From Dehalococcoidia bacterium (lineage in GTDB: Bacteria; Chloroflexota; Dehalococcoidia; UBA2979), in assembly GCA_965262725.1 (NCBI GenBank), contig OZ253555.1, forward strand, positions 2,951,838-3,015,837: DNA of 64,000 nucleotides, given 5' to 3'. A program made the position numbers and the translations under genes. Positions 3,552 through 43,185 of this stretch are shown in pieces; the first letter of the stretch is position 1, and the number at the start of each line of letters is the position of its first letter. The notes below the pieces were generated by a model. The model saw only the letters and a program-made list of their open reading frames with translations. It searched no databases and had not been told where the DNA came from.

Positions 3552-4394
3552 CTAGCGGGCGGAGGCCGCGGCTCCCAGCCAGCCGATGCGCGCTCTGGCG
3601 ACGGCCGCGACCTCGGCCCGCGCGTCGTGAAGAGCCGGCCGCGGGTCGTCCCCGTGGTCCCGGAGGGAGCCGGCGAGCGCGCGCGCGACGGCCCGGTGGA
3701 TCTCGCGCGAGATATTGACCTTGCGCACGCCGGCCGACACTGCGGCGGCGAGAGCCGGCGGCGCCACGCCGGAGCCGCCGTGCAGCACGAGCGGCAGGCC
3801 CTCGGTCCGGCGGCGGATCTCGCGGACGAGCGGGATGCTCACCTCGCCCGCGCGCCCGTGCGCCGTCCCCACCGACACCGCGAGCGCGTCGACGCCCGTC
3901 TCGGCGACGAAGCGGGCCGCCTGGCGCGGATCGGTGAGATCCGTCTCGGAGGTCACCACCCCTGGCTCGCTTCCGCCGACGTGGCCGAGCTCCGCCTCGA
4001 GCGCGACGCCGGCCGCGGCCGCGATCGCCCGGGCCGCCCGCGTCTCGCGCACATTCTGCTCATAGGGAAGCGTGGAGCCGTCGAACATGACCGAGGTGCA
4101 TCCCGCGGCGACCGCGCGGCGGAGCGTCGAGGCGTCCGCGCCGTGGTCGAGGTGAAGGCCGACCGGCACGTTCGCGCCGCGCGCGAGAGCAAGCAGGTAC
4201 GCCGCCGCCGGTTCCAGCCCGCCCATCGCGTCGAAGTTCCCCGAGTTGAACTGGAGCAGCACCACGGCGTGGAGCGCCTCCGCCGCGTCGAGGACGCCGA
4301 GCGCCATGCCGGGCGTGGAGACGTTGAAGGCGGGGAGCGCGAAGCCTCCCCGCTCCGCCGCGGCGAGCAGATCGCGGGCCGCCGCGACCGGCAT
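3552..4394 (-). CDS. class II fructose/tagatose-bisphosphate aldolase family protein
   Basis: LHLDHG zinc-binding motif, GFALPAFNV N-terminus, length 280 aa. Confidence 0.8.
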   Translation of the reverse strand: MPVAAARDLLAAAERGGFALPAFNVSTPGMALGVLDAAEALHAVVLLQFNSGNFDAMGGLEPAAAYLLALARGANVPVGLHLDHGADASTLRRAVAAGCTSVMFDGSTLPYEQNVRETRAARAIAAAAGVALEAELGHVGGSEPGVVTSETDLTDPRQAARFVAETGVDALAVSVGTAHGRAGEVSIPLVREIRRRTEGLPLVLHGGSGVAPPALAAAVSAGVRKVNISREIHRAVARALAGSLRDHGDDPRPALHDARAEVAAVARARIGWLGAAASAR

Positions 4395-15434: not shown

Positions 15435-15502
15435 GCACGCGGCGGCGCGGCCAGACACGCTGCCGGGGCGATTCGGGGAGGCGAGGCGAGGCGTGCGTGT
15501 CG

Positions 15503-15532
15503 TTGCGACGCACTTGTGCCTGCCCCTATACT
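15503..15532 (+). promoter_or_regulatory. sigma-70-like promoter candidate TTGCGA-N18-TATACT upstream of dnaN
   Basis: Read directly from the sequence; it is followed by a perfect 10-bp palindrome GCGCATGCGC at about 15552..15561. Confidence 0.4.
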
Positions 15533-15586
15533 CAGGGATGCTCGCGAAAGCGCGCATGCGCATGAGCGAATAGACCGAGGCGCACG

Positions 15587-16723
15587 ATGCGACTCAGTTG
15601 CCAGCAGGAAGATCTCAACCGGGGGCTCTCTGCGGTCTCCCGAGCGATTCCGGCGCGCACGACACTGCCCATCACGAATCACATCCTGCTCGAGGCGAAG
15701 GACGACTCGATCACGCTCAGCGCGACCGACGCCGAGACGATCGCGATCACGTACACGATCCGCGGGGAGGTCCTCTCGCCGGGATCGCTGACCCTCCCCT
15801 CACGGCTGCTCTCGGAGTTTGTCGGTTCACTCCCTGCGTCGCGGATCGACATGACACTCGCCGAGCGCTCGCGGCAGGTGCACCTCTCGTGCTCGAGGAA
15901 CGAGGCGTCTATCGGCGGCATGGACCCCGAGGAGTTCCCTCCGATCCCGCCGGTCTCCGACCTGCCGGCACTTCGCATCCCGGCGGCAGGGCTGCGGCGC
16001 GCCCTTAGCCAGGTGGTCTTCGCTGCCGCCACCGACGACGCGCGTCCCGTGTTGACGGGCGTCCAGCTCGCCATCAGCGGCAAGAAGATCTTGCTCGCTG
16101 CGGCCGACGGCTTCCGGCTCTCCGTCCATACCCTCGATCTTCCCGAGGAGACCGAGGAGCGCACGGCGATCGTGCCAGCCAGAGCCCTCGGCGAGTTGCT
16201 GAGGTTGCTGCCGGAGGCCGGCGACGAGACGGTGGCCGTGACCTTCAACACGTCTGGCCGTCAGGCGCAGTTCGATCTCGGTCATGCCACCCTCGTCGCG
16301 CAGCTCATCGAGGGCACGTTCCCGAACTACGAGCAGCTGATCCCGCCGAACCACAACACGCGCACCGAGGTGCTGCTGGACGAGTTCATGCGTGAGGCGC
16401 GCATCGCCTCCATCTTCGCGCGAGACGGCTCGGGCATCGTGCGGCTGGTCGCCAGCGAGGGGGAGCACGGGCAACCGGGGCGCCTCCTGATCAGCGCCCG
16501 CGCCGAGGAGATCGGCACGAATGAGGGCGAGATCGATGGAATAGTCGAGGGCGACGAGGCGAAGATCGCCTTCAACGGCCGCTACCTCACTGACATTCTG
16601 CAGGTGGTCGGCACGGAGCGGGTCGCGCTCGAGACCTCATCCCCATCCAGCCCCGGCGTGTTCCGCCCGGTCGGCGACGACTCCTTCGTCCACGTCGTCA
16701 TGCCTATGTTCGTGCAATGGTGA
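15587..16723 (+). CDS. dnaN: DNA polymerase III beta subunit (sliding clamp), not in an oriC (dnaA-recF-gyrB) context
   Basis: Three-domain beta-clamp, 378 aa (MRLSCQQEDLNRGLSAVSRAIPARTTLPITNHILLEAKDDSITL...). The gene is visibly lower in GC than its flanks. Confidence 0.9.
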   Translation: MRLSCQQEDLNRGLSAVSRAIPARTTLPITNHILLEAKDDSITLSATDAETIAITYTIRGEVLSPGSLTLPSRLLSEFVGSLPASRIDMTLAERSRQVHLSCSRNEASIGGMDPEEFPPIPPVSDLPALRIPAAGLRRALSQVVFAAATDDARPVLTGVQLAISGKKILLAAADGFRLSVHTLDLPEETEERTAIVPARALGELLRLLPEAGDETVAVTFNTSGRQAQFDLGHATLVAQLIEGTFPNYEQLIPPNHNTRTEVLLDEFMREARIASIFARDGSGIVRLVASEGEHGQPGRLLISARAEEIGTNEGEIDGIVEGDEAKIAFNGRYLTDILQVVGTERVALETSSPSSPGVFRPVGDDSFVHVVMPMFVQW

Positions 16724-17178
16724 TTATGTCTAGTAGACTGGCTTGCCCCCCACTGCCCGACGACTCACGAACCGCCCCCCCCCGCCCTGGGTATGACCGC
16801 GCCGACGACCCGAGCGCCCGCGATGTGCGGGGCGCTGGCCGCGTACGCCTGGGCAATGAGGTTCGCGCAGAGACAGACAGCGCCAGCACCGCTTTCGAAT
16901 GGTCGGATCGGGGTGGAGGCCCGCCCCGGAAGGACGCAGAGCAGCGTCCACCAGCATGCTGTAGAGGCGGAAGCCCCAAGCCCGCGACAGATATCCGGCG
17001 ACAGCTTCTTCTGACAGCGGACCAGTACGCCCAATCGGCGTCCCAACCGAGGTCGTAGAGCAGGGCCTAGCCGTGCAAGTCGGCCGGGTCTCGGGGCTGG
17101 CCGAGCGCCTTGAGGAGGGCCGGGTCCTGCGAGACTCTCTTCGTGCTCCCAGCCGCTGGATTGATGTAGACTTACATC

Positions 17179-17430
17179 ATGAGTCATCGCACGCAGATCA
17201 CGCTGACCGATGAGCAATATGCGCGGCTACGCGAGGAGTCCCGGCGCTCCGGCCTCGGCCTCGCGGAACTCGTTCGGCGGGCGCTTGAGCGCAACTACGG
17301 GACGTCTTCCAGTGCGGAGGTGCTGAGCGCCCTCGACGCGAGCTTCGACTCCTGGGCGGACCGCGACTTTGACGGCGCGAGCTACGTCGAGGGGCTTCGT
17401 CGCGGCATGTCTCGCCGACGGGCGGGCTGA
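17179..17430 (+). CDS. vapB: ribbon-helix-helix (CopG/VapB-like) antitoxin
   Basis: 83 aa, RHH N-terminus ITLTDEQYARLREESRRSGLGLAELVRRAL. ATGA overlap with the downstream PIN gene. Confidence 0.8.
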   Translation: MSHRTQITLTDEQYARLREESRRSGLGLAELVRRALERNYGTSSSAEVLSALDASFDSWADRDFDGASYVEGLRRGMSRRRAG

Positions 17431-17810
17431 TGGCGATCATCGTCGACACGTCGGTGCTGATCGACCACCTGCGAGGTGAGGAAGCGGCTCGCGCAGCGCT
17501 TCGCGGCGCCACGGCCGCCGGCGAACGGCTCGCGGCTTCCGTACTCACCAAAGTCGAGGTGCTGGCCGGGATGCGAGTCCCGGAGGAGCGCGCCACGCGT
17601 CGCCTGTTGGACAGCCTCGACTGGATCGAAGTCGATGACGAGCTCGCCGAACGCGCCGGCGTGCTGGCCAACCGGTTTCTGCCGTCGCACCCCGGGGTCG
17701 ATCCGGTCGACTACGTGATTGCCGCGACCGCCGAACTCCTCGACGCCCGGCTCTGGACCCGCAACGTCCGCCACTTCCCGATGTTCCCGCAGCTCGAATC
17801 TCCGTACTGA
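17430..17810 (+). CDS. vapC: PIN-domain toxin
   Basis: MAIIVDTSVLIDHL start and conserved acidic residues; 126 aa. Confidence 0.85.
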   Translation: MAIIVDTSVLIDHLRGEEAARAALRGATAAGERLAASVLTKVEVLAGMRVPEERATRRLLDSLDWIEVDDELAERAGVLANRFLPSHPGVDPVDYVIAATAELLDARLWTRNVRHFPMFPQLESPY

Positions 17811-17872
17811 GACGTTGTTCGGCGATCCCCCGAGTCTGCCCGTTGAGGCGTGCTCGTGTGGACCGAGGAGGT

Positions 17873-18398
17873 TCAAGAGGCGCAGATCTTCGAAACGGGG
17901 GAAGAAGCACAGCTCACCTCCGATCCCGCGTGCTCCGGGCGCTTCTCCGCTCCCTGGTAGCCGGCATCGCCCCACACCTCCGTCTCGCCGCCGTGTAACA
18001 GGCGATGCGCCTCGGTCACGTCGGAGACGTTCGCCGCCGTCGTGCTCACGCTGTGGACCAGCCCCGTCCGCGCATCCGTGCCGGTGTGCAGCTTCATCCC
18101 GAAGGACCACTGCCGGCCCTTCCTGGTCTGATGCATCTCGGGCTCGCGCTCATGCTCCTGATTCTTCGTCGATGACGGCGCGCTGATGGTCATGGAGTCC
18201 ACGATCGTCCCCTCGCGCACCAGCAGACCGCGCGCTGCGAGGTGCGTGTTGATCGTGGCAAACAGCGCCGTTCCCAACTGGTGACGCTCCACCGCGGACG
18301 GAATAATGGCACCGCCCAGGGTGCCAGTTCTCCCCGCGAGGTCCGGCGGCTCTACTGAAGTAATGAGGGCGAGTTCCTCCTCAGCCCGTCTGCGGCAC
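17873..18398 (-). pseudogene. IS5-family (DDE) transposase internal fragment, truncated at both ends with no start codon
   Basis: LVREGTIVDSMTISAPSSTKNQ...EPEMHQTRKGRQWSFGMKLHTGTDARTGLVHSVSTTAANVSDV...GDAGYQG aligns to the middle of IS5 InsH. The open frame begins right after the ATPase gene's TAG stop and contains no ATG/GTG/TTG. Confidence 0.75.
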
Positions 18399-18400
18399 GC

Positions 18401-19579
18401 CTACGAGCGGCTGCTCTCCGATCGCTCCAGCACCCCGGCCAGTCCCGAGAGCGACACGACCTCGCAGTCGCTGCGGAGCTGACTCTCGGCGCCGCCGTAC
18501 ACCACGGTCTTGCCGGACACGCCCGGAAGCAGGTCGCCAACGCGGTTGATCGAGGTGAAGTAGTCGGAAGCCACCGTGGCACCGGACCTAATCTCGATCG
18601 CGCTGACGCCGCTCCCGGTCTCGTAGAGGAGGTCGCACTCCAGTCCCCTCGAGTCGCGGAAGAAGGAGAGGTTGGGCTGGAGCCCCTGATTGAAGCGATG
18701 CTTCAACGCTTCCGCCACGACCACGTTTTCGAAGAGCGCTCCGCGCAGCGGATGCGTCGCCACCTGCTGCGGGCTCTCGATGCCGAGCAGATAGCTGGCC
18801 AGCCCCACGTCATAGAAGTAGAGCTTCGGCGACTTGACCAGGCGCTTGCGGATGTTGGCGTGGAACGGCGGCAGCTGGAAGACGACATAGCTCGTCTCGA
18901 GGACTGTGACCCACTCACGCGCGGTGGTGTGGGATACGCCCGCGTCGGACCCGACCGCGCTCAGGTTGAGTAGTTGGCCGACGCGTCCCGCGCAGAGACG
19001 CACGAAGAGCCTGAACGCCGAGAGGTTGCGGATCCCACCCAGCCGGCGCACGTCGCGCTCGACGTAGGTCTCGAAGTAGTCGCCGAGCGCCTGCCGCGGC
19101 TCCAGCCCCTGGTCGTGAATCCGGGGGTAGAACCCCGAGTAGATGATGTCGTCTATCGCCTCGCTCGCACCCGTGCGGCGTCGCTCCGCGAGAGAGAACG
19201 GCAGCAGGCGGAGCAGCGCGGTGCGCCCGGCCAGCGACTGGCTGATGGCGTCGGAGAGCCGGAACTGCTCGCTGCCGATGAGCACGAACAGGCTATTCCG
19301 TCCGCGTTCGTCGGCGAGGACCTGGAGGTACGACAGGAGCTGGGGAACATGCTGGACCTCATCGATGATCGCGCCCTCGCCCAGTTGCGCGAGGAAGCCG
19401 CGGGGGTCCGACTCGGCGAAGTCGCGCTGGTCGGGCGCCTCTAGATTGGCGTACTGCAGGTCGGGGAAGGCCGCACGGCAGAGGGTCGTCTTGCCGGACT
19501 GGCGCGGACCGGTCACGGTCACGAAGGGGTATTGTCCGAACAGCGCGGTCAGCCGGTCCGTGATGTCACGCTCGATCAT
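18401..19579 (-). CDS. AAA+ ATPase (AAA_14 + DUF4143 family)
   Basis: Walker A GPRQSGKTT. DUF4143-like C-terminal half. Likely start MIERDITDRLT; the track ORF begins at a TTG inside the upstream palindrome. Confidence 0.8.
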   Translation of the reverse strand: MIERDITDRLTALFGQYPFVTVTGPRQSGKTTLCRAAFPDLQYANLEAPDQRDFAESDPRGFLAQLGEGAIIDEVQHVPQLLSYLQVLADERGRNSLFVLIGSEQFRLSDAISQSLAGRTALLRLLPFSLAERRRTGASEAIDDIIYSGFYPRIHDQGLEPRQALGDYFETYVERDVRRLGGIRNLSAFRLFVRLCAGRVGQLLNLSAVGSDAGVSHTTAREWVTVLETSYVVFQLPPFHANIRKRLVKSPKLYFYDVGLASYLLGIESPQQVATHPLRGALFENVVVAEALKHRFNQGLQPNLSFFRDSRGLECDLLYETGSGVSAIEIRSGATVASDYFTSINRVGDLLPGVSGKTVVYGGAESQLRSDCEVVSLSGLAGVLERSESSRS

Positions 19580-19604
19580 AGCGTCACAGTATGGGCGATG
19601 CCGT

Positions 19605-19633
19605 ACAAACTGCAAGTACTACTTGCAGTTTGT
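19605..19633. promoter_or_regulatory. perfect 29-bp palindrome ACAAACTGCAAGTA-C-TACTTGCAGTTTGT, about 25 nt upstream of the ATPase start; candidate operator
   Basis: Perfect 14-bp arms, and AT-rich in a 72% GC background. Confidence 0.6.
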
Positions 19634-19668
19634 CCCACCGGTGAGTGTCGCAGCCCGAGGGCGCGCGC

Positions 19669-19800
19669 ATGCTCTACGACAACCTCTCCGTCGCGGCGCC
19701 TCGCTGCGCGAGCTGGTCGAACAACCCGCAGGAGCGCCTGAACAAGGAGATCCGCCGGCGCACCACAGAGATCGCCTCATCGTGAGTCTTCCGGAGCCAG
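19669..19800 (+). pseudogene. IS256-family transposase C-terminal remnant, frameshifted
   Basis: MLYDNLSVAAPRCASWSNNPQERLNKEIRRRT matches the IS256 C-terminal signature (TNPIERLNKEIKRRT...VVGIFPN). The expected continuation appears in another frame (IVSLPEPGLLRGAAG). Confidence 0.45.
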
Positions 19801-19803
19801 GGC

Positions 19804-20072
19804 TACTGAGGGGCGCTGCGGGCAACCGCTTCGCGCGGAAGCGCGGCCTCCCAGAGCTCGATGTAGGGCACCAGTGGCGGCGACCGCTCCGCGAGCCACG
19901 CGTGCGGCGCAAGCTCGGACTCGGAGGAGAAGTTGGCGGTGATTTCAGTCCAGCGGCCGTCGATGCGCTCCCACTGTGCGTAGGTGTACGAGATGGCGCC
20001 GCTGGGCTGGAACGCGGCGGGTGGCGTGCCGTAAACGAGCTCGCCGGTCTCGATCTTGTGAATCGCCAGGAT
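19804..20072 (-). pseudogene. 5'-truncated gene fragment of unknown family, interrupted by the IS21 left end
   Basis: About 90 codons of open frame with strong GC3 bias (ILAIHKIETGELVYGTPPAAFQPSGAISYTYAQWERIDGRWTEITANF...) but no start codon; it abuts the IS21 terminus. Confidence 0.35.
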
Positions 20073-20114
20073 CTATAGACCAGCAAACGGCGAGATCGCC
20101 AGGGTCTATGTGCC
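20062..20114 (+). repeat. two imperfect 20-bp direct repeats (ATCGCCAGGRTCTATRKRCC) at the IS21 left terminus
   Basis: 20062..20081 and 20095..20114 are 16/20 identical. Multiple terminal sub-repeats are typical of IS21-family ends. Confidence 0.5.
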
Positions 20115-20213
20115 ACTTCGCCAAGGTCATTGAGCCACCCCTCCGGGGGGTCTGACCACTCGGGCCGCCGGTACGGCCACCATCGCCTGCATCCCCAGCG
20201 GAGGGGAGCAGCG

Positions 20214-21794
20214 ATGGCCTACCGGGAGGTACACGGGGTGGAGATCCAGGAGATCATTCGTCGCTGGCAGGCGGGGCTCAGCCAGCGCCGCATCGCCAGC
20301 GGGATGGGGTTGTCGCGTCAGACGGTCCGCCGCTACATCGACGCGGCCGAAGCGGCCGGCCTCACACCTGACGGTCCCGAGCCGAGTGAGGAGCAGCTCG
20401 CCGCGCTGGCGACGCTGAGCCTCTCCGGCCCGCGGCAGGTCGAGGCGCCGAGCGAGGAGCTGCTCTCGCCCTGGGCGGAGCAGATCGAGCGCTGGCTTGA
20501 GACCGACCGCCTGCAACTGACGCGCATCCAGGAGCTCCTCGCCGGACGAGGCTGCGAGGTCTCCTACACCACGCTGCGGCGTTTCATCCGGCGCCGCGGC
20601 TGGCGCCACCGGCTGCCGTCGACCGTGCGCATGGACGACGGGCCGCCGGGCGAGGTGGCGGAGATGGACTTCGGCCGCCTCGGCTTCATCCGGGACCCCG
20701 AGAGCGGCCGCCGGCGCGCGGTGTGGGCGCTGGTCGTCGTCTGGCGCTACTCACGCCACTGCTTTGTGTGGCCCACCACCAGCCAGAAGCTGGACGCTGT
20801 GATCGAGGGCCTGGAGGAGGCCTGGGCCTTCTTCGGGGGAGTGCCCCGCTACCTCGTCATCGATAACTTCCCGGCCGCCGTCGCCGGGGCCGACGCGCTG
20901 CACCCGCGCTTCACGCGGGGCTTCCTCGAGTACGCCCGCCACCGCGGCTTCATCACCGACCCCGCGCGCGTGCGTCATCCCCGCGACAAGCCGCGCGTCG
21001 AGCGCAGCATCCCCTACGTGCGCGAGCGCCTCTTCAAGGGCGGCGACTTCCGGGACGTCGTCGACCTGCGCTCCGCCGCCCGCAGCTGGTGCCTGGAGGT
21101 GGCGGGACAGCGCATCCACGGCACGACACGCCGGCGCCCGCTCGAGGTCTTCCGGGAGGAGGAGCTCCCTCTCCTCGCTCCCTGGGACGGCGAGCCCTAC
21201 GAGGTCCCCGACTGGCGGACCGCCACGGTCCATCCCGACCACCACATCGCCTGCCAGTACGCGCTGTACTCGGTGCCGTCCACGGCCTGCCCGCCCCGCC
21301 AGAAGGTCGAGGTGCAGCTCGGCTCGAAGCTGGTGCGCATCTACCACCGCGGTCAGCTCATCAAGGTCCACCCGCGCCAGCGCCGGGGCGGCCGGGCCAC
21401 CGACCCGAACGACTACCCGGCCGAGCTCACCCCCTACACCAGGCGGGCGCCCGACTGGATACAGCGCCGCGCCGCCGAGCTGGGGGAGGCCGTGGGCGCC
21501 TACGCCGAGCGTCTCTTCGAGGGCTCCCTGCCCTGGGCGAAGCTGCGGCAGGGCCACAAGCTGCTGCGCCTCGCCGAGCGCTACTCCCCGGACCGCCTCG
21601 ACGCCGCCTGCCGCCGCGCGCTCGAGGTCGACCTCATCGACGTGCGCCGCCTCGAGCGCATCCTCGTCGAGGCCCTCGACCAGGAGAGCACCCCAGACCA
21701 GCCCGAGCTGCCGCCGCCTCCGGGGCGCTTCGCCCACTCGGGCTCCGTCTTCGCACAGTCCCGCACGCAGACCCCGACAGGAGCACCACGATGA
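20214..21794 (+). CDS. istA: IS21-family transposase
   Basis: Internal ATG of ORF 20130..21794 (MAYREVHGVEIQEIIRRWQAGLSQRRIA...). N-terminal HTH and DDE integrase core. Confidence 0.9.
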   Translation: MAYREVHGVEIQEIIRRWQAGLSQRRIASGMGLSRQTVRRYIDAAEAAGLTPDGPEPSEEQLAALATLSLSGPRQVEAPSEELLSPWAEQIERWLETDRLQLTRIQELLAGRGCEVSYTTLRRFIRRRGWRHRLPSTVRMDDGPPGEVAEMDFGRLGFIRDPESGRRRAVWALVVVWRYSRHCFVWPTTSQKLDAVIEGLEEAWAFFGGVPRYLVIDNFPAAVAGADALHPRFTRGFLEYARHRGFITDPARVRHPRDKPRVERSIPYVRERLFKGGDFRDVVDLRSAARSWCLEVAGQRIHGTTRRRPLEVFREEELPLLAPWDGEPYEVPDWRTATVHPDHHIACQYALYSVPSTACPPRQKVEVQLGSKLVRIYHRGQLIKVHPRQRRGGRATDPNDYPAELTPYTRRAPDWIQRRAAELGEAVGAYAERLFEGSLPWAKLRQGHKLLRLAERYSPDRLDAACRRALEVDLIDVRRLERILVEALDQESTPDQPELPPPPGRFAHSGSVFAQSRTQTPTGAPR

Positions 21795-22564
21795 CCGCCA
21801 CCACCTCAGACCTCCGTCCGCTGCTCAAGCGCCTCAAGCTCGGCCGTATGCTCGACACCCTGCCCGAGCGCATCGCCCTCGCGCGGCGCGACCACCTCGA
21901 CTACGCGGACTTCCTGCAGATCCTGCTCGTCGACGAGGTGAGCCGCCGCGACCACGGGCGGTTGGAGCTGCGCCTGCGCCAGGCCGGCTTCGAGCAGCTC
22001 TGCCGCCTCGAGGACTTCGACTGGGCGGCCGCCATCCGGCTCGACCGCCGCCTGCTCGACGCCGCCTTCTCGCTGCACTTCCTCGATCGCCGCGAGCACG
22101 TCCTGCTCGTCGGCCCCGTCGGCGTCGGCAAGAGCTTCTTAGCCCAGGCGCTCGGCTACTCAGCCGTCCGCTCCGGACGCAGCGTCCGCTTCGCCCCGGC
22201 CGACCACTACTTCCGCGAGATGGCGCAGGCCCGCGTCGACCACTCGGCCGAGAAGGTCTTTCGAAGCTTCCTCGCGCCCGACCTGCTCATCCTCGACGAC
22301 CTCGGGCTCCATCGCCTCAGCGCGCAGCAGTCCATCGACCTCTACGAGCTGGTCATCGGGCGCCACCGCAGCTCCAGCTTCGTCATCACCTCGAACCGCG
22401 CCGTAGAGGAATGGCTGGGTCTCTTCGACGACCCGATCCTCGGCAACAGCGCCCTCGACCGCCTCGCCAACGCCAGCTACCAGATCGTGATCGAGGGCGA
22501 TAGCTACCGCCAGCGGCTCTCGCCGCACCGCGCCCTGCTCGAGGCGCAGACGGGAGGTGATTGA
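21791..22564 (+). CDS. istB: IS21-family helper ATPase
   Basis: Walker A GPVGVGKSF and Walker B LLILDDLG; 257 aa. Confidence 0.9.
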   Translation: MTATTSDLRPLLKRLKLGRMLDTLPERIALARRDHLDYADFLQILLVDEVSRRDHGRLELRLRQAGFEQLCRLEDFDWAAAIRLDRRLLDAAFSLHFLDRREHVLLVGPVGVGKSFLAQALGYSAVRSGRSVRFAPADHYFREMAQARVDHSAEKVFRSFLAPDLLILDDLGLHRLSAQQSIDLYELVIGRHRSSSFVITSNRAVEEWLGLFDDPILGNSALDRLANASYQIVIEGDSYRQRLSPHRALLEAQTGGD

Positions 22565-22653
22565 CGCGCTAGTGTCCTGATTCGTAATAGCGACAGATAA
22601 CGGGTATGGTGGCACAGCGGGGTTTTGCCCCATGGGGCAGACTCTGGAGTGTC

Positions 22654-23706
22654 ATGAGCACCCGAATCGGACGGCCGACGGTCGCGATCGTCCTGAGCGA
22701 CGAGGAGCGTGAGACGCTGGAGCGGTGGGCGCGCCGGCCGACATCGGCCCAGGCGCTGGCGCTGCGCTGTCGCATCGTCCTGGCAGCGGCCGAGGGGACA
22801 TCGAATAAAGCGATCGCCGCGGCGCTCGATTGCCATCCGGTCACCGTCGGCAAGTGGCGCCGGCGCTTTGCGCAGGGGCGGCTCGATGGGCTACAGGATG
22901 AGCCGCGCCCCGGGGCGCCGCGCACGATCGCCGATGCACAGGTGGAAGCGGTGATCGTCACGACGCTGGAGGAGCAGCCTCCCAACGCGACGCACTGGTC
23001 GACCCGATCGATGGCAGCCGCGGTCGGGATGTCGCAGTCGGCGATCTTCAGGATCTGGCGCGCCTTCGGCCTGAAGCCGCACCTCGTGGAGAGCTTCAAG
23101 CTGTCGCCCGACCCGCAGTTCATCGACAAGGTGCGCGACGTGGCCGGGCTCTATCTCAACCCGCCCGACGCGGCGGTTGTGCTGTGCGTGGACGAGAAGA
23201 CCCAGATCCAGGCACTCGACCGCACCGCGCCGACGGTGCCGATGATGCCCGGCGTCCCCGCCCGCCAGACGCACGACTACATCCGTCACGGCACGACGAA
23301 CCTCTACGCGGCGCTCGATGTCGCCTCGGGATGCGTGATCACGGAGATGACCCCCCGGCACCGGGCTCGGGAGTTCCAGCAGTTCCTCGCCCTCATCGAC
23401 CAAAGCGTTCCCCGTGAGCTGGCGGTGCATGTCGTGCTCGACAACGTCTCCACGCACCGCACGCCCGCCATCCAGCGCTGGCTCCAGCGCCATCCCCGCT
23501 TCACCTTCCATTTCACGCCGACCTACAGCTCCTGGATGAACCTCGTGGAGCGCTGGTTTGCAGAGCTCACCAGCAAGTGGCTCCGGCGCGGCACGCACCA
23601 TAGCGTCCCTGATCTGATCCGCTCAGTGGAGATGTGGGTCGCCAGCTGGAACGAGAATCCGAGGCCCTTCATCTGGCACAAGTCCGCGGACCAGATCCTT
23701 GAGTAG
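22654..23706 (+). CDS. IS630-family (Tc1/mariner-like) transposase; the last ~16 native codons are displaced by the intron, and the current TAG stop lies inside the intron 3' end
   Basis: N-terminal HTH and DDE region (VLCVDEKTQIQAL...VVLDNVSTH). Removing 23703..26638 in silico restores ...ADQILDNLTGYLNRISNSGH* ending in the right IR. Confidence 0.85.
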   Translation: MSTRIGRPTVAIVLSDEERETLERWARRPTSAQALALRCRIVLAAAEGTSNKAIAAALDCHPVTVGKWRRRFAQGRLDGLQDEPRPGAPRTIADAQVEAVIVTTLEEQPPNATHWSTRSMAAAVGMSQSAIFRIWRAFGLKPHLVESFKLSPDPQFIDKVRDVAGLYLNPPDAAVVLCVDEKTQIQALDRTAPTVPMMPGVPARQTHDYIRHGTTNLYAALDVASGCVITEMTPRHRAREFQQFLALIDQSVPRELAVHVVLDNVSTHRTPAIQRWLQRHPRFTFHFTPTYSSWMNLVERWFAELTSKWLRRGTHHSVPDLIRSVEMWVASWNENPRPFIWHKSADQILE

Positions 23707-23866
23707 GGTCAGGGGCTGGCGCGGTGCGAGCCGTAGGCGGTGGCGCATATTGCCAGGCCGGTTTCCCGGTGGCGCCCATCTCCACAGCCGTAGCATCGTC
23801 CGTCTCCAGCCCCTGCCGCCTCGAACCGGACGTGAGGTTTTCCCTCATCCGGCTCACCGATGCCCT

Positions 23867-24660
23867 TCACCGGGCGGCATGCGGGGTGCCCCGCCACGGT
23901 CGATATGGCCGTGGTGCCACGACGCGCTGTCCAGCTAGCGAGATGAGCCCCAGACGGTCGGCGACGGGAAACGGGTGCCCGCGATGGCGTCGCCGCCAAC
24001 GCAACCGCTTCCCCAGCCAGAGTTTGAGTCTCCACATGGCAAACCAGTGCAGGACGTCGAACGCCCTCGCCGAGTTGCCGTAGCGGAAGTAGCTCATCCA
24101 GCCGCGGAGGTAGCGATTGACTTCCTCCACGACCTGCCGGGGACTCAGCAGCAGACGCAACCGCGCCGTGATTTCACGGATGCGGTCCCGCGCCCGCTGC
24201 ATCGCTCGCCGTGAGGGCCAGCGTGCGAGGAACTGGATATTCTTGTTGCGCTTCGCACGTACCCAGCGATGCTCGAAGCCGAGGAACTCCAGCCCCTCGC
24301 CTCCCTCCCGCAGGTGCACGATGCGCGTCTTCTCCGCCTTGAGCTCCAGTCCGAGCTCACCCAGCAGGTCACGCAGCAGGGCCAACGCCCGCTCCGCTTC
24401 CTCCCGGCTCCGGCAGAGCACCACGAGGTCATCCGCATAGCGCACCAGCACGCCATCACCCTTCGCCTCCCAGTCCCGGTCCAACCGGTGCAGGTAGACA
24501 TTGGCCAGCAGCGGGGACATCACCCCGCCCTGCGGCGTACCCGTCGCGCTGTGCTGCACGACCCCCGACTCCATCACACCGGCACGCAGCATCGCCCGTA
24601 CCAGCTTCAGGAGATTGCGGTCGCATATCCGTTCCTCGACGGCCGTCATCAGACGGTCGT
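23867..24660 (-). CDS. group II intron-encoded reverse transcriptase/maturase, 3' segment (RT domains 3-7 + X domain)
   Basis: HDRLMTAVEERICDRNLLKLV, SPLLANVYLHRLD, VRYADDLVVLC (YADD), X domain RYLRGWMSYFRYGNS. The N-terminal 70 aa of track ORF 23867..24853 are translated intron RNA. Confidence 0.85.
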
Positions 24661-25522
24661 GTAGGGTCAGGGGCTGGCGCGGTGCGAGCCGTAGGCGGTG
24701 GCGCATCAGTTCCAAGCCGGTTTCCCGGTGGTGCCCAACTCCACGGCCATAGCAGCGTCCGTCTCCAGCCCCTGCCACATCGAACCGGACGTGAGGTTCT
24801 CCCTCATCCGGCTCACCGATGCCCTTCACCAGATGGCATGCAGCGCTCCCCACAACGTGGGTCGTGCCTTGGCCAGCCGGTACAGCATGTGCGGAGAGCC
24901 TCGAACCCTACCAAGTGGTTGCTAGCCCCGAGGGGCACTCACCAGTCCACACCCCCAGCAACATGCACGGACAAAGTAGGGGTCCTTCCCATCACCGGCG
25001 GTTATGTTGTCCGTCCGGCTCCAGCGGTACTACGACCCCCTCCGCCACCCTTCCGGCTGGCTGTCCACTTCCCGGCTCTGACCGGTTATAGGACGCCTCG
25101 CTCCGACGCCCTCTCACAGGGTGCCGGGCCGGGGAGGGCTTCTCCGGTTCCCGTCGCTACCTTCCGTACGTTCCACGTCCCATACGCCGGGAGGTTTCTT
25201 GAGGCTGCATTCCAGGATCTTCACCTCGTCCATGGCCTTCGCCCTGACCACCCGGGCTCGGCTCCTCCTTGGTCCTGTCAATAGACAGGCGAGTCTCACG
25301 GCGCGGCAGACTTCGCGTCATGCTGCGGACCGCACGTTTGCTCCCCCTCATAGGGCTCTTGACGTCGGGCTTCGACGCAGACCGTTTCCCGTCCACGCCG
25401 CCGACCTGCTAACGGGCCTCCTGACAGTTACCCGTGCCGGACTCTCACCGGCTGGCAGCAACGAGCATGTCTCCGGACCGGTCACGTCATCACGTCACCA
25501 CCCCTTCGACTTCCGGACGCAC
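24661..25522 (-). mobile_element. nested ORF-less group II intron (about 862 bp; 5' GTGCG ... 3' CCCTAC) inside the RT gene of the outer intron
   Basis: About 90% identical to the outer intron's domains I-III and V-VI. Removing it in silico rejoins ...FESIP|HDRLMTAVEE..., the canonical RT domain-3 sequence. Confidence 0.75.
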
Positions 25523-26087
25523 GCGGTATCGACTCGAAACACGAGGCGATGTCCGTCTCCACTACCCACCGCCTGCCCCGCCACGCCTCGTCAATGAGGA
25601 CCTGCAGGGCGTCATGGGCCGAACGCTTCGGGCGGAAGCCGAAGCTGCATGGCAGGAAGTCGGCCTCGAAGACCGGCTCCGTCACGAGCTTCAGCGACGC
25701 CTGCACGATGCGGTCGCGGACCGAAGGAATCGAGAGCGGGCGCTCTTCCGACCGACCGGGCTTGGGTATCCAGACCCGGCGGCTCGGCTGCACCCGGTAT
25801 CTTCCCTCCTTCAGTTCCGTGGCCAGTTCATCCAGCAGGCGCTCCACGCCGTAGCGCTCGACCTCGGCGAGCGTGACGCCGTCGATACCGGCTGCGCCGC
25901 GATTGCGACGCACCTGCTCCCACGCGCGCTCCAGAATGTCTCTGCGATAAACCTTGTCGTAGAGCGCATGAAAGCGTCTATTGGGGTCGGCCTTGGCCGC
26001 CCGGTAAAGCGTGCGTTGTAGTGTTCGGACCTTGTCTTGGATGGAGTTAGCCGCTTGGGCACTCACCGATTCATCCCTACTCCCCAC
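25523..26087 (-). CDS. group II intron-encoded reverse transcriptase/maturase, 5' segment (RT domains 0-3), interrupted after FESIP by the nested intron
   Basis: KVRTLQRTLYRAAKADPNRRFHALYDKVYRRDILERAWEQVRRNRGAAGIDGVT...RRVWIPKPGRSEERPLSIPSVRDRIVQ...FRPKRSAHDAL. Confidence 0.85.
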
Positions 26088-26830
26088 GCGTGAGCAAAGC
26101 AGGGGTCCTTCCCATCACCGGCGGTTGTGTTGTCCGTCCGGCTCAAGCGGTACTACGACCCCCTCCGTCACCCTTCCGGCTAGCTGCCCACTTCCCGGCT
26201 TTGACCGGTTATAGGGCACCTCGCTCCGACACCATCTCGCAGGGTGCCGGGCCGGGGAGGGCTTCTCCCGTTCCCGTCGCTACCTTCCAAACGTTCCACG
26301 CCCCTTACGCCGGGAGGTTCCTTGAGGCTGCAGCGCAACGCGCATTCAGGATCTTCACCTCGTCCATGGCCTTCGCCCTGAATTGCCGGGCTCGGCTCCT
26401 CCACTATCCGTTAACGACGCGGCAGGCTTCGCTTGATGCTGCGGACCGCCTGGTTGCTCCCCCTGATAGGGCTCTTGACGTCGGGCTTCGACGTGGACCG
26501 TTTCCCGTCCGCGCCGCCGACCTGCTAACGGGCCTCCTGACAGTTACCCGTGCCGGACTCGCACCGGCTGGCAACGACGAGCATGTCTCCAGACCGGTTA
26601 CGTCATCACGTCACCCGCCCTTCGACTTCGGGACACACCAACCTCACCGGATATCTCAATCGCATTTCCAATTCAGGACACTAGCAGGGTGCTGAAGAAG
26701 CTCCTTCCGGGGGCCTCGGAGCGGTGCCGGGCGGCTTGAGAGGCCACGTCCGGCTTCGTGATCGCCGTCTCCTGACCTGCCCCCGGCGGCCTCGGAGGGC
26801 TCCTGGACCGGCCGTAGGGCGCAGTGCGCC

Positions 26831-43065: not shown

Positions 43066-43185
43066 GCGGAAAGCCTACGCGACGCGCCCGTCTCGGACGC
43101 TCGCGGATCCGTATGATCGCGCCATGCTGGCCCTCCACACCCGATACCCCGCCCCGCGCCGCGCCGGCGCGGGGCGGCCACAGCG

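Follow-up and report, generated by a model that had tools for sequence, protein, structure and literature searches.

A conserved palindrome at the promoter of a mobile AAA_14/DUF4143 ATPase gene is a putative operator for autoregulation

A stretch of 64,000 nucleotides from a Dehalococcoidia bacterium (contig OZ253555.1, positions 2,951,838 to 3,015,837; this whole stretch is referred to below as the window) carries a gene for an ATPase of the AAA_14/DUF4143 family, and a perfect 29-bp palindrome lies immediately upstream of that gene. We propose, with a probability of about 0.62, that the palindrome serves as operator in a single-gene cassette that is self-contained, moves horizontally and is autorepressed by its own product, a predicted ATPase-nuclease. 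The proposal builds on the observed conservation, position and symmetry of the site, on promoter-like elements, on the absence of a partner gene, and on co-variation between a protein helix and the operator.

The palindrome, ACAAACTGCAAGTA-C-TACTTGCAGTTTGT, occupies positions 19605-19633 (29 bp, unstranded) and consists of perfect 14-nt arms around a 1-nt center. We regard it as a putative operator on the grounds of its presence, uniqueness, family-wide position, information content and covariation, the last in 75 loci. The initial annotation had described a perfect 29-bp palindrome with 14-bp arms, 25 nt upstream of a plausible ATG, and a direct search recovered the palindrome with this arm length. 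It had also called the site AT-rich, which holds (38% GC, or 11 of 29 positions, vs 72.6% for the window), although its figure of about 35% GC was not exact. The distance to the start codon is exactly 25 nt (19580-19604, with the ATG at 19577-19579). Homologs use the same start: they share the N-terminal sequence MIER..., and similarity does not continue upstream of the ATG, so that a start elsewhere in the ATPase gene is not indicated. An alternative TTG start at 19615 falls within the palindrome.

Among the perfect palindromes of the window, this one is the longest and the sole AT-rich one; the others with arms of at least 10 nt have 71-100% GC. Maximum arm lengths in 30 mononucleotide shuffles of the window were 9-13 nt, vs 14 nt in the actual sequence. 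The half-site was not found elsewhere in the 64 kb, even when up to 3 mismatches were allowed, and a degenerate core derived from the family matched in the window at 19605-19633 alone. The second-longest palindrome of the window, CCGCCCCGCGCCG-CGC-CGGCGCGGGGCGG (43149-43177), is also perfect, with 13-nt arms and 100% GC.

A protein search returned at least 8000 relatives of the ATPase, the best 120 of which were all at least 80% identical, and more than 548 stretches encoding relatives were present in contigs from one genome per species. Loci were compared using the best 80 of these >548 stretches (73-93% amino acid identity), and operators were counted in 81 homologous loci whose proteins are 73-96% identical; individual loci and proteins are given below by L and P numbers. 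In 75 of the 81 loci, the palindrome center lies 37-43 nt before the ATG, and most of the remaining 6 have either a degenerate palindrome or a mis-set start. The family core is TTGMAAGTA-N-TACTTKCAA, within the center-anchored consensus TGCACAAATTGAAAGTA-N-TACTTGCAATTTGTGCA. In hosts with 49-72% GC, the information content at core positions ±2 to ±8 is 1.2-2.0 bits. The window operator is the most perfectly symmetric of all operators seen.

Symmetry extends beyond the core, to ±17-19 in the family and to ±23 in L134. When pairing was scored to ±19, 79.4% of cells were complementary vs 67.3% in column shuffles (none of 500 shuffles reached the observed value), and a control with slid partners gave 31-50%. 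Cells in which both partners had changed numbered 207 vs 90 expected (75 loci), and all four Watson-Crick pair types occur at positions ±14 and ±15. Across 80 loci, the mismatches have no wobble or strand bias (61 G-T vs 57 A-C). A terminator scan of 18300-19800 identified no terminator-like site (the palindrome stem has 38% GC and is not followed by a T-run or U-tract), and an Rfam scan of 18000-20500 gave no match at E <= 1. The absence of a G-U bias, of an Rfam match and of a terminator indicates that the constraint acts on symmetric duplex DNA, not on an RNA hairpin. Together with the fixed position, the overlap with a promoter and the two-fold symmetry, these findings agree with the initial annotation, which had favored the operator of a dimeric regulator over a terminator.

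Promoter-like elements are built into the site. A -35-like hexamer, TTGCAG (19610-19615, minus strand; TTGCAA in the family), lies in the gene-proximal arm and was assigned from hexamer counts and arm asymmetry. A -10-like hexamer, TACTGT (19586-19591, minus strand; TAnnnT), was assigned from the family register and is located 18 nt after the -35-like element and 6 nt before the ATG. The proximal-arm hexamer is TTGCAA in 37 of 75 loci, TTTCAA in 15 and TTGCAG in 6. TAnnnT follows it after 16-18 nt in 67 of the 75 loci (after 17 nt in 48 of these), and in 60 of the 67 its end is separated from the ATG by 5-8 nt; the T, A and T of this motif are the sole conserved bases between palindrome and ATG. 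There is no room for a Shine-Dalgarno sequence between the -10 element and the ATG, so the mRNA is probably leaderless or nearly so. The features expected of a sigma-70-type promoter for a leaderless mRNA are present at the family level (67/75 loci).

The single systematic break of symmetry is found at arm position 6, where 39 loci have A in the distal and G in the proximal arm and only 3 have the reverse. The arm next to the gene therefore contains TTGCAA, and its mirror hexamer is TTTCAA. Such asymmetry is as expected of selection for a -35 element that is directed toward the gene and read by RNA polymerase, and it implies that a protein bound to the palindrome would cover that same DNA.

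Several loci (L076, L071, L028, L035, L031, L047, L056 and L120) contain extra operator copies 53 bp, about 105-106 bp or 119 bp upstream of the main site (i.e., at -93, -145 and -159), and spacings of 53 and 106 bp approximate whole helical turns. In some loci a further copy occurs about 30 nt past the stop codon, and the gene is then flanked by palindromes, as in a few Dehalococcoidia loci (L028, L071 and L076; copies in L076 are located at 2893-2925 and 4217-4252). These auxiliary copies could support cooperative binding or looping, or could be boundaries or remnants. A conserved 3' partner site was not detected across 80 loci. The extra copies occur in a minority of loci and adjoin the same gene only; with its single occurrence in the window, the palindrome does not behave as a repetitive element placed at unrelated sites. 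A dispersed repeat or mobile-element end, such as a repetitive extragenic palindromic (REP) element, attC or the inverted repeat of an insertion sequence (IS), was considered and rejected on the basis of the single window copy and the lack of a conserved 3' end.

The loci span Chloroflexota (including Dehalococcoidia), Actinomycetota (Acidimicrobiia), Acidobacteriota, Nitrospirota (Nitrospirales), Verrucomicrobiota (Opitutales), Latescibacterota, Pseudomonadota (Alpha- and Gammaproteobacteria) and Binatia, i.e., at least eight phyla. Many of the host metagenome-assembled genomes bear sponge-associated names, e.g., Poriferisocius and Spongiisociaceae. Such high identity across phyla argues for horizontal exchange of the gene. 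All-against-all clustering of flanking open reading frames (ORFs) revealed no common neighbor gene across the 80 loci, only lineage-specific synteny in small groups of related genomes, and this ruled out a partner gene or operon as a candidate. When loci are compared in pairs, their DNA is similar up to -50 to -60 from the ATG, where the palindrome has its distal edge; on the other side, the similarity breaks off within the variable C-terminus. Since similarity stops at the palindrome edge and the flanks are not shared, the transferred unit would comprise the palindrome, the promoter and the coding sequence. The window contains no second copy of the ATPase gene. The closest relative (P0001, 96% identical; L093, a European Nucleotide Archive contig) is located beside IS21 istA/istB and a PIN gene in an arrangement that differs from that in the window; its operator is less perfect than that of the window and its start codon is GTG.

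The ATPase gene (18401-19579, minus strand) encodes 392 amino acids plus a stop codon, and its product is predicted to contain an AAA+ ATPase, a winged helix and a PD-(D/E)XK nuclease-like domain. Pfam searches with the protein matched AAA_14 (PF13173) at residues 18-132 (E 5e-24) and DUF4143 (PF13635) at residues 174-332 (E 9e-49; 165.7 bits vs a cutoff of 28.1). Models of the PADLOC candidate system PDC-S01 also matched (PDLC04790, E 1.8e-89 over residues 1-366). The P-loop ATPase domain (residues 18-132; 19184-19528, minus strand) has conserved Walker A (GPRQSGKT) and Walker B (IIDE) motifs, and all 73 relatives compared share K30, D73 and E74. By sequence, no solved homolog was found with the single sequence, and a profile search gave only three weak unrelated hits (best E 0.024). 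A first structure model built from close homologs alone was poor (pLDDT, the predicted local distance difference test, 58.7) and was superseded by an AlphaFold2 model (pLDDT 81.7) from an alignment enlarged by a clade with 31-34% identity. This model contains the AAA+ domain, a winged helix and an alpha-beta-beta-beta-alpha-beta domain of PD-(D/E)XK-like fold. The predicted winged helix-turn-helix (HTH) covers residues 186-255 (18815-19024, minus strand), with helices at 186-197, 206-213 and 217-229 and wing strands at 233-236 and 252-255; its assignment rests on the model and on a helix motif that tracks the operator core (see below). The recognition helix of the window protein begins G-V-S-H-T-T-A-R-E-W.

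The nuclease-like domain (residues 279-376; 18452-18745, minus strand) was assigned from alignment and model, the family residues being E284, D309, E314, D316 and E329-x-K331. The window copy retains E284, D309, E314, D316 and E329; its PD-(D/E)XK constellation is not intact, because the catalytic Lys position of the (D/E)xK motif is occupied by Arg331 (codon AGG at 18587-18589, minus strand). Comparison with relatives places K331R in the window copy only: Lys is present in 72 of 73 close relatives, and AGG is one transition away from AAG. The window copy may thus be catalytically impaired at the nuclease and, as it also lies in an IS-rich patch of lower GC, is perhaps a decaying copy; the assignment to the AAA_14/DUF4143 family by sequence is unaffected. 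The exact window protein has no record in public assemblies. About one-third of the close relatives (L005, L018, L019, L024, L026, L029, L033, L034, L037 and others; proteins P0008 and P0018) are about 575 rather than about 390 residues long and have a C-terminal extension of about 180 residues without a Pfam match.

Because no other gene travels with the site across many phyla, the binder is expected to be either the gene product itself or a universal factor such as RNA polymerase. A metagenome scan with a 23-nt core (AWTTGMAAGTRNTACTTKCAAWT) gave 28 hits, 16 of which adjoin family members that are 26-73% identical to the window protein, on contigs with 30-67% GC. In all 13 readable cases among these core-bearing loci, the recognition helix follows the pattern G-[VIL]-[ST]-H-T-T. 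Conversely, plasmid homologs without [ST]HTT (27-36% identity) had the core in none of 11 cases, and several of them bear different long palindromes over their own promoters; different palindromes were seen in Sphingobium, Granulicella and Asticcacaulis, and in an L113 paralog with 20-nt arms. A closely related site accompanies the only plasmid homolog with SHTT, which comes from Allochromatium and is 53% identical. A 34%-identical homolog on a Moraxella bovis plasmid (L082) is preceded by a 45-bp perfect palindrome that is centered on TATAAT directly before the start codon (1440-1495). M. bovis is a culturable host with a plasmid-borne copy and could serve experiments.

Changes in the helix are also accompanied by changes in the operator. 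All four proteins with H217R (L004, L015, L136 and L137) have a T:A to C:G replacement at ±8 in both arms, which no protein with H217 has, and a clade with a THPT helix (L037, L038 and L078) has an altered operator center, AAAGCGTCACTTT. Viral contigs contained 14 core matches, none of them beside an ATPase gene and none with the arm extension. Phage-borne decoy copies were therefore rejected, the viral matches being judged chance occurrences of the bare core in AT-rich DNA.

From these data we infer the following circuit. A sigma-70-type promoter would drive a leaderless or near-leaderless mRNA, with a transcription start predicted from the promoter-like elements, for the protein that combines ATPase, winged helix and nuclease. 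The protein, as a two-fold symmetric oligomer, would bind the palindrome through its winged helix, whose recognition helix (S-H-T-T...) would read the TTGMAAGTA core, and the ATPase or nuclease domains might aid binding, as in Orc1/Cdc6. Bound protein would occlude the -35 element, and the resulting negative autoregulation would keep the level of a nuclease that may be harmful low and independent of the host. In this way the cassette could function after transfer to unrelated bacteria, with a burst of expression upon arrival in a naive cell. The product may have a role in anti-phage defense.

A more speculative extension, which we consider improbable, is that the cassette is a one-gene, host-independent immune or addiction module. 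In such a module, the ATPase-nuclease would sit on its 35-bp, cruciform-capable operator as a "self" anchor, and invading DNA, a change in supercoiling or oligomerization during infection would titrate it off, thereby coupling sensing, derepression and nuclease activation. Operator-helix pairs would be orthogonal (cf. the different palindromes on tandem paralogs), and palindrome-bounded units would spread selfishly between phyla in sponge microbiomes.

Several observations weigh against autorepression by the ATPase. All support for it is comparative. Each of the two helix-operator correspondences is restricted to a single clade; together they represent about two evolutionary events, are confounded by phylogeny and are suggestive rather than conclusive. 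In L124, a second tandem paralog lacks the SHTT helix and still has the core operator upstream, and an orphan extended operator (TTGCAATTTGCAAGTACCACTTGCAAATTGCAA) occupies an intergenic position in L121 (about 735-770) with no ATPase homolog nearby. In a subgroup with 60% identity the operator center is at about -67, so the geometry is not universal. The hexamers in the window are weak (7 of 12 matches), and a strict consensus scan made no promoter call there, though they are in the family register. Positions ±14 and ±15 covary freely, yet the winged helix is nearly invariant and has no alignment column that changes in step with them. In addition, a center at about -40 is the classical position of a class II activator, hence the sign of regulation is uncertain. 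Mutual information between operator positions ±10-17 and the protein alignment was uninformative, as it picked out solely the C-terminal columns with the greatest variability. With regard to the loci just mentioned, a histidine-kinase-like ORF lies downstream of the L121 orphan operator, and tandem family paralogs occur in L113 (three), L118 (two) and L124 (two).

Some of these points raise the possibility that DNA structure, i.e., a cruciform or hairpin, is under selection instead of or besides an operator, e.g., as a supercoiling-sensitive promoter switch, as a substrate or anchor of the PD-(D/E)XK domain, or as a recombination or boundary site. Arms symmetric to ±17-19, and to ±23 in L134, fit base-pairing in a cruciform or hairpin, or homogenization by template switching, better than base readout, as does free covariation at ±14 and ±15 without a matching change in the protein. 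The single strand of the palindrome also folds well as DNA (a stable hairpin, -15 kcal/mol, z = -5.1), the palindrome coincides exactly with the 5' end of the transferred unit, and three loci (L028, L071 and L076) have copies on both sides of the gene. However, a pure structure does not need a core that is nearly invariant over hosts with 27-72% GC and proteins with 26-96% identity. The A..G asymmetry weakens the hairpin while improving the -35 element, a 1-nt center does not favor extrusion, a single copy without a conserved 3' partner site is the rule among the loci, and the module contains no recombinase. We consider this explanation unlikely; DNA structure may act as an additional layer, but the invariant core and the asymmetry speak against structure alone.

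Alternatively, the ATPase may bind the palindrome and activate, at a class II-type site near -40/-41, which would be comparable to the C-box from which controller proteins of restriction-modification systems activate transcription. The center at -40 ± 3 from the likely start, the imperfect -35-like hexamers (TTGCAA, TTTCAA) and the auxiliary upstream sites in some loci are consistent with activation. The proximal-arm G, on the other hand, appears to be selected, which implies direct reading of the -35 element by sigma factor, and a protein over -57 to -23 would block this. Furthermore, the palindrome covers the -10 element in Moraxella L082 and sits between TTGACA and TATAAT in L133, both of which are repressor geometries. 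Activation is thus the less probable sign of regulation, and we rate it as rather improbable overall.

It is also conceivable that the palindrome serves an unlinked host regulator, or that its AT-richness attracts nucleoid or xenogeneic-silencing proteins. Proteins that silence foreign DNA of high AT content are a familiar class, and a palindrome of 38% GC in a window of 72.6% GC would suit them. This reading is very unlikely, given that the same core is found in at least eight phyla, including hosts with 27-36% GC where AT-richness is not distinctive, that no neighboring regulator is conserved, that the site occurs nowhere else in the window, and that helix and operator co-vary. Finally, the stable hairpin and the position between mobile-element remnants might suggest a hairpin that serves as intrinsic terminator or insulator of upstream transcription, the terminal repeat of an IS, or a palindrome that arose by chance. 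These readings are contradicted by the comparative data: the AT-rich stem has no U-tract, no terminator call and no Rfam hit, the palindrome is kept in 75 loci without these IS elements, and its arms exceed those of all shuffles.

The neighborhood of the cassette is rich in mobile DNA. The initial annotation had placed the gene between an IS5 fragment and IS256/IS21, beside vapBC, and annotation of the window confirmed all four neighbors. A fragment of an IS5-type DDE transposase (DDE_Tnp_1; 17873-18400, minus strand) abuts the 3' end of the ATPase gene, and a C-terminal remnant of an IS256-type transposase (Transposase_mut; about 19660-19785, plus strand) begins about 27 nt past the distal edge of the palindrome. 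Both are context and lie outside the module; the IS256-type remnant marks where the conserved module stops. Further away are an IS21-type istA (20130-21794) and a vapBC-type pair composed of a ribbon-helix-helix antitoxin (17179-17430) and a PIN toxin (17430-17810). The region 15450-26700 has 61-70% GC vs about 73-79% outside, is dense in mobile-element genes (IS5, IS256, IS21 and IS630), and contains, in addition to the vapBC pair, a fragment of a group II intron reverse transcriptase (23867-24853) and a second dnaN-like beta-clamp gene (15587-16723). This patch looks like an acquired island. No known defense system was identified beside the ATPase gene in the window, its neighbors being vapBC, IS5/IS256/IS21/IS630 and the group II intron fragment. 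The earlier remark that such ATPases are often found in defense islands is borne out only in part: the family corresponds to PDC-S01, a candidate system in PADLOC, but the window gene itself lies in an IS-rich patch by vapBC and not among known defense systems.

If the proposed circuit is correct, the operator-promoter and its matching helix would be the first concrete DNA ligand for PDC-S01 proteins. The operator-helix pairing provides a simple, testable regulatory model, and operator/helix pairs such as H217R with ±8 constitute a natural specificity-swap experiment. It would also follow that heterologous tests carried out without the native control region, or with overexpressed protein, may mislead. 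More generally, the family offers a clean case of a single-gene cassette that passes between co-resident symbionts of at least eight phyla and retains its own host-independent control.

We found no description of an operator, promoter or autoregulation of the AAA_14/DUF4143 family in the searchable literature. DUF4143 is listed within the PD-(D/E)XK superfamily (PMC3424549), and PDC-S01, of which tens of thousands of copies exist, is reported to rank fourth in abundance among the defense candidates of prokaryotes (PMC12988326). One PDC-S01 representative was tried in E. coli B against T4, T5 and T7 and was outside the four candidates reported as protective (PMC12881386). The window protein shares with PDC-S01 (AAA_14 + DUF4143; COG1373) the ATPase plus PD-(D/E)XK architecture (PMC12988326), and differs from typical members in K331R within the (D/E)xK motif. 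Orc1/Cdc6 initiators and archaeal ATPases of the Walker type whose C-terminus forms a winged helix (PDB 2qby, 2qen and 2fna) are 13-19% identical to the window protein. Unlike it, they have no nuclease domain, and the site described here is located on the gene's own promoter rather than at a replication origin.

Two groups of regulatory circuits provide closer parallels. The controller (C) proteins of restriction-modification systems, e.g., C.PvuII and C.AhdI, act on C-boxes, palindromic operators over the regulator's own promoter, and the transcript is leaderless. The cassette would resemble these circuits in being a mobile nuclease module with its own operator, a predicted leaderless mRNA and host-independent control, and some loci have two operator copies. 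It differs in that there is no separate small HTH regulator, since the predicted DNA-binding domain lies within the ATPase-nuclease; the palindrome is longer (35 bp, 1-nt center) and unrelated in sequence, and a switch from activation to repression, as in C-box systems, is not part of the proposed circuit. Regulators of the BrxR/CapW type are dedicated repressors of defense islands. Like type II toxin-antitoxin systems and defense-island repressors such as RptR (PMC12255303), the cassette places a palindromic operator over the promoter of a mobile module that may be toxic, with a logic of negative feedback. In those systems, however, a separate regulator or antitoxin binds the site, whereas in the cassette this role probably falls to the effector candidate, and the operator core persists over far greater protein divergence, down to 26% identity.

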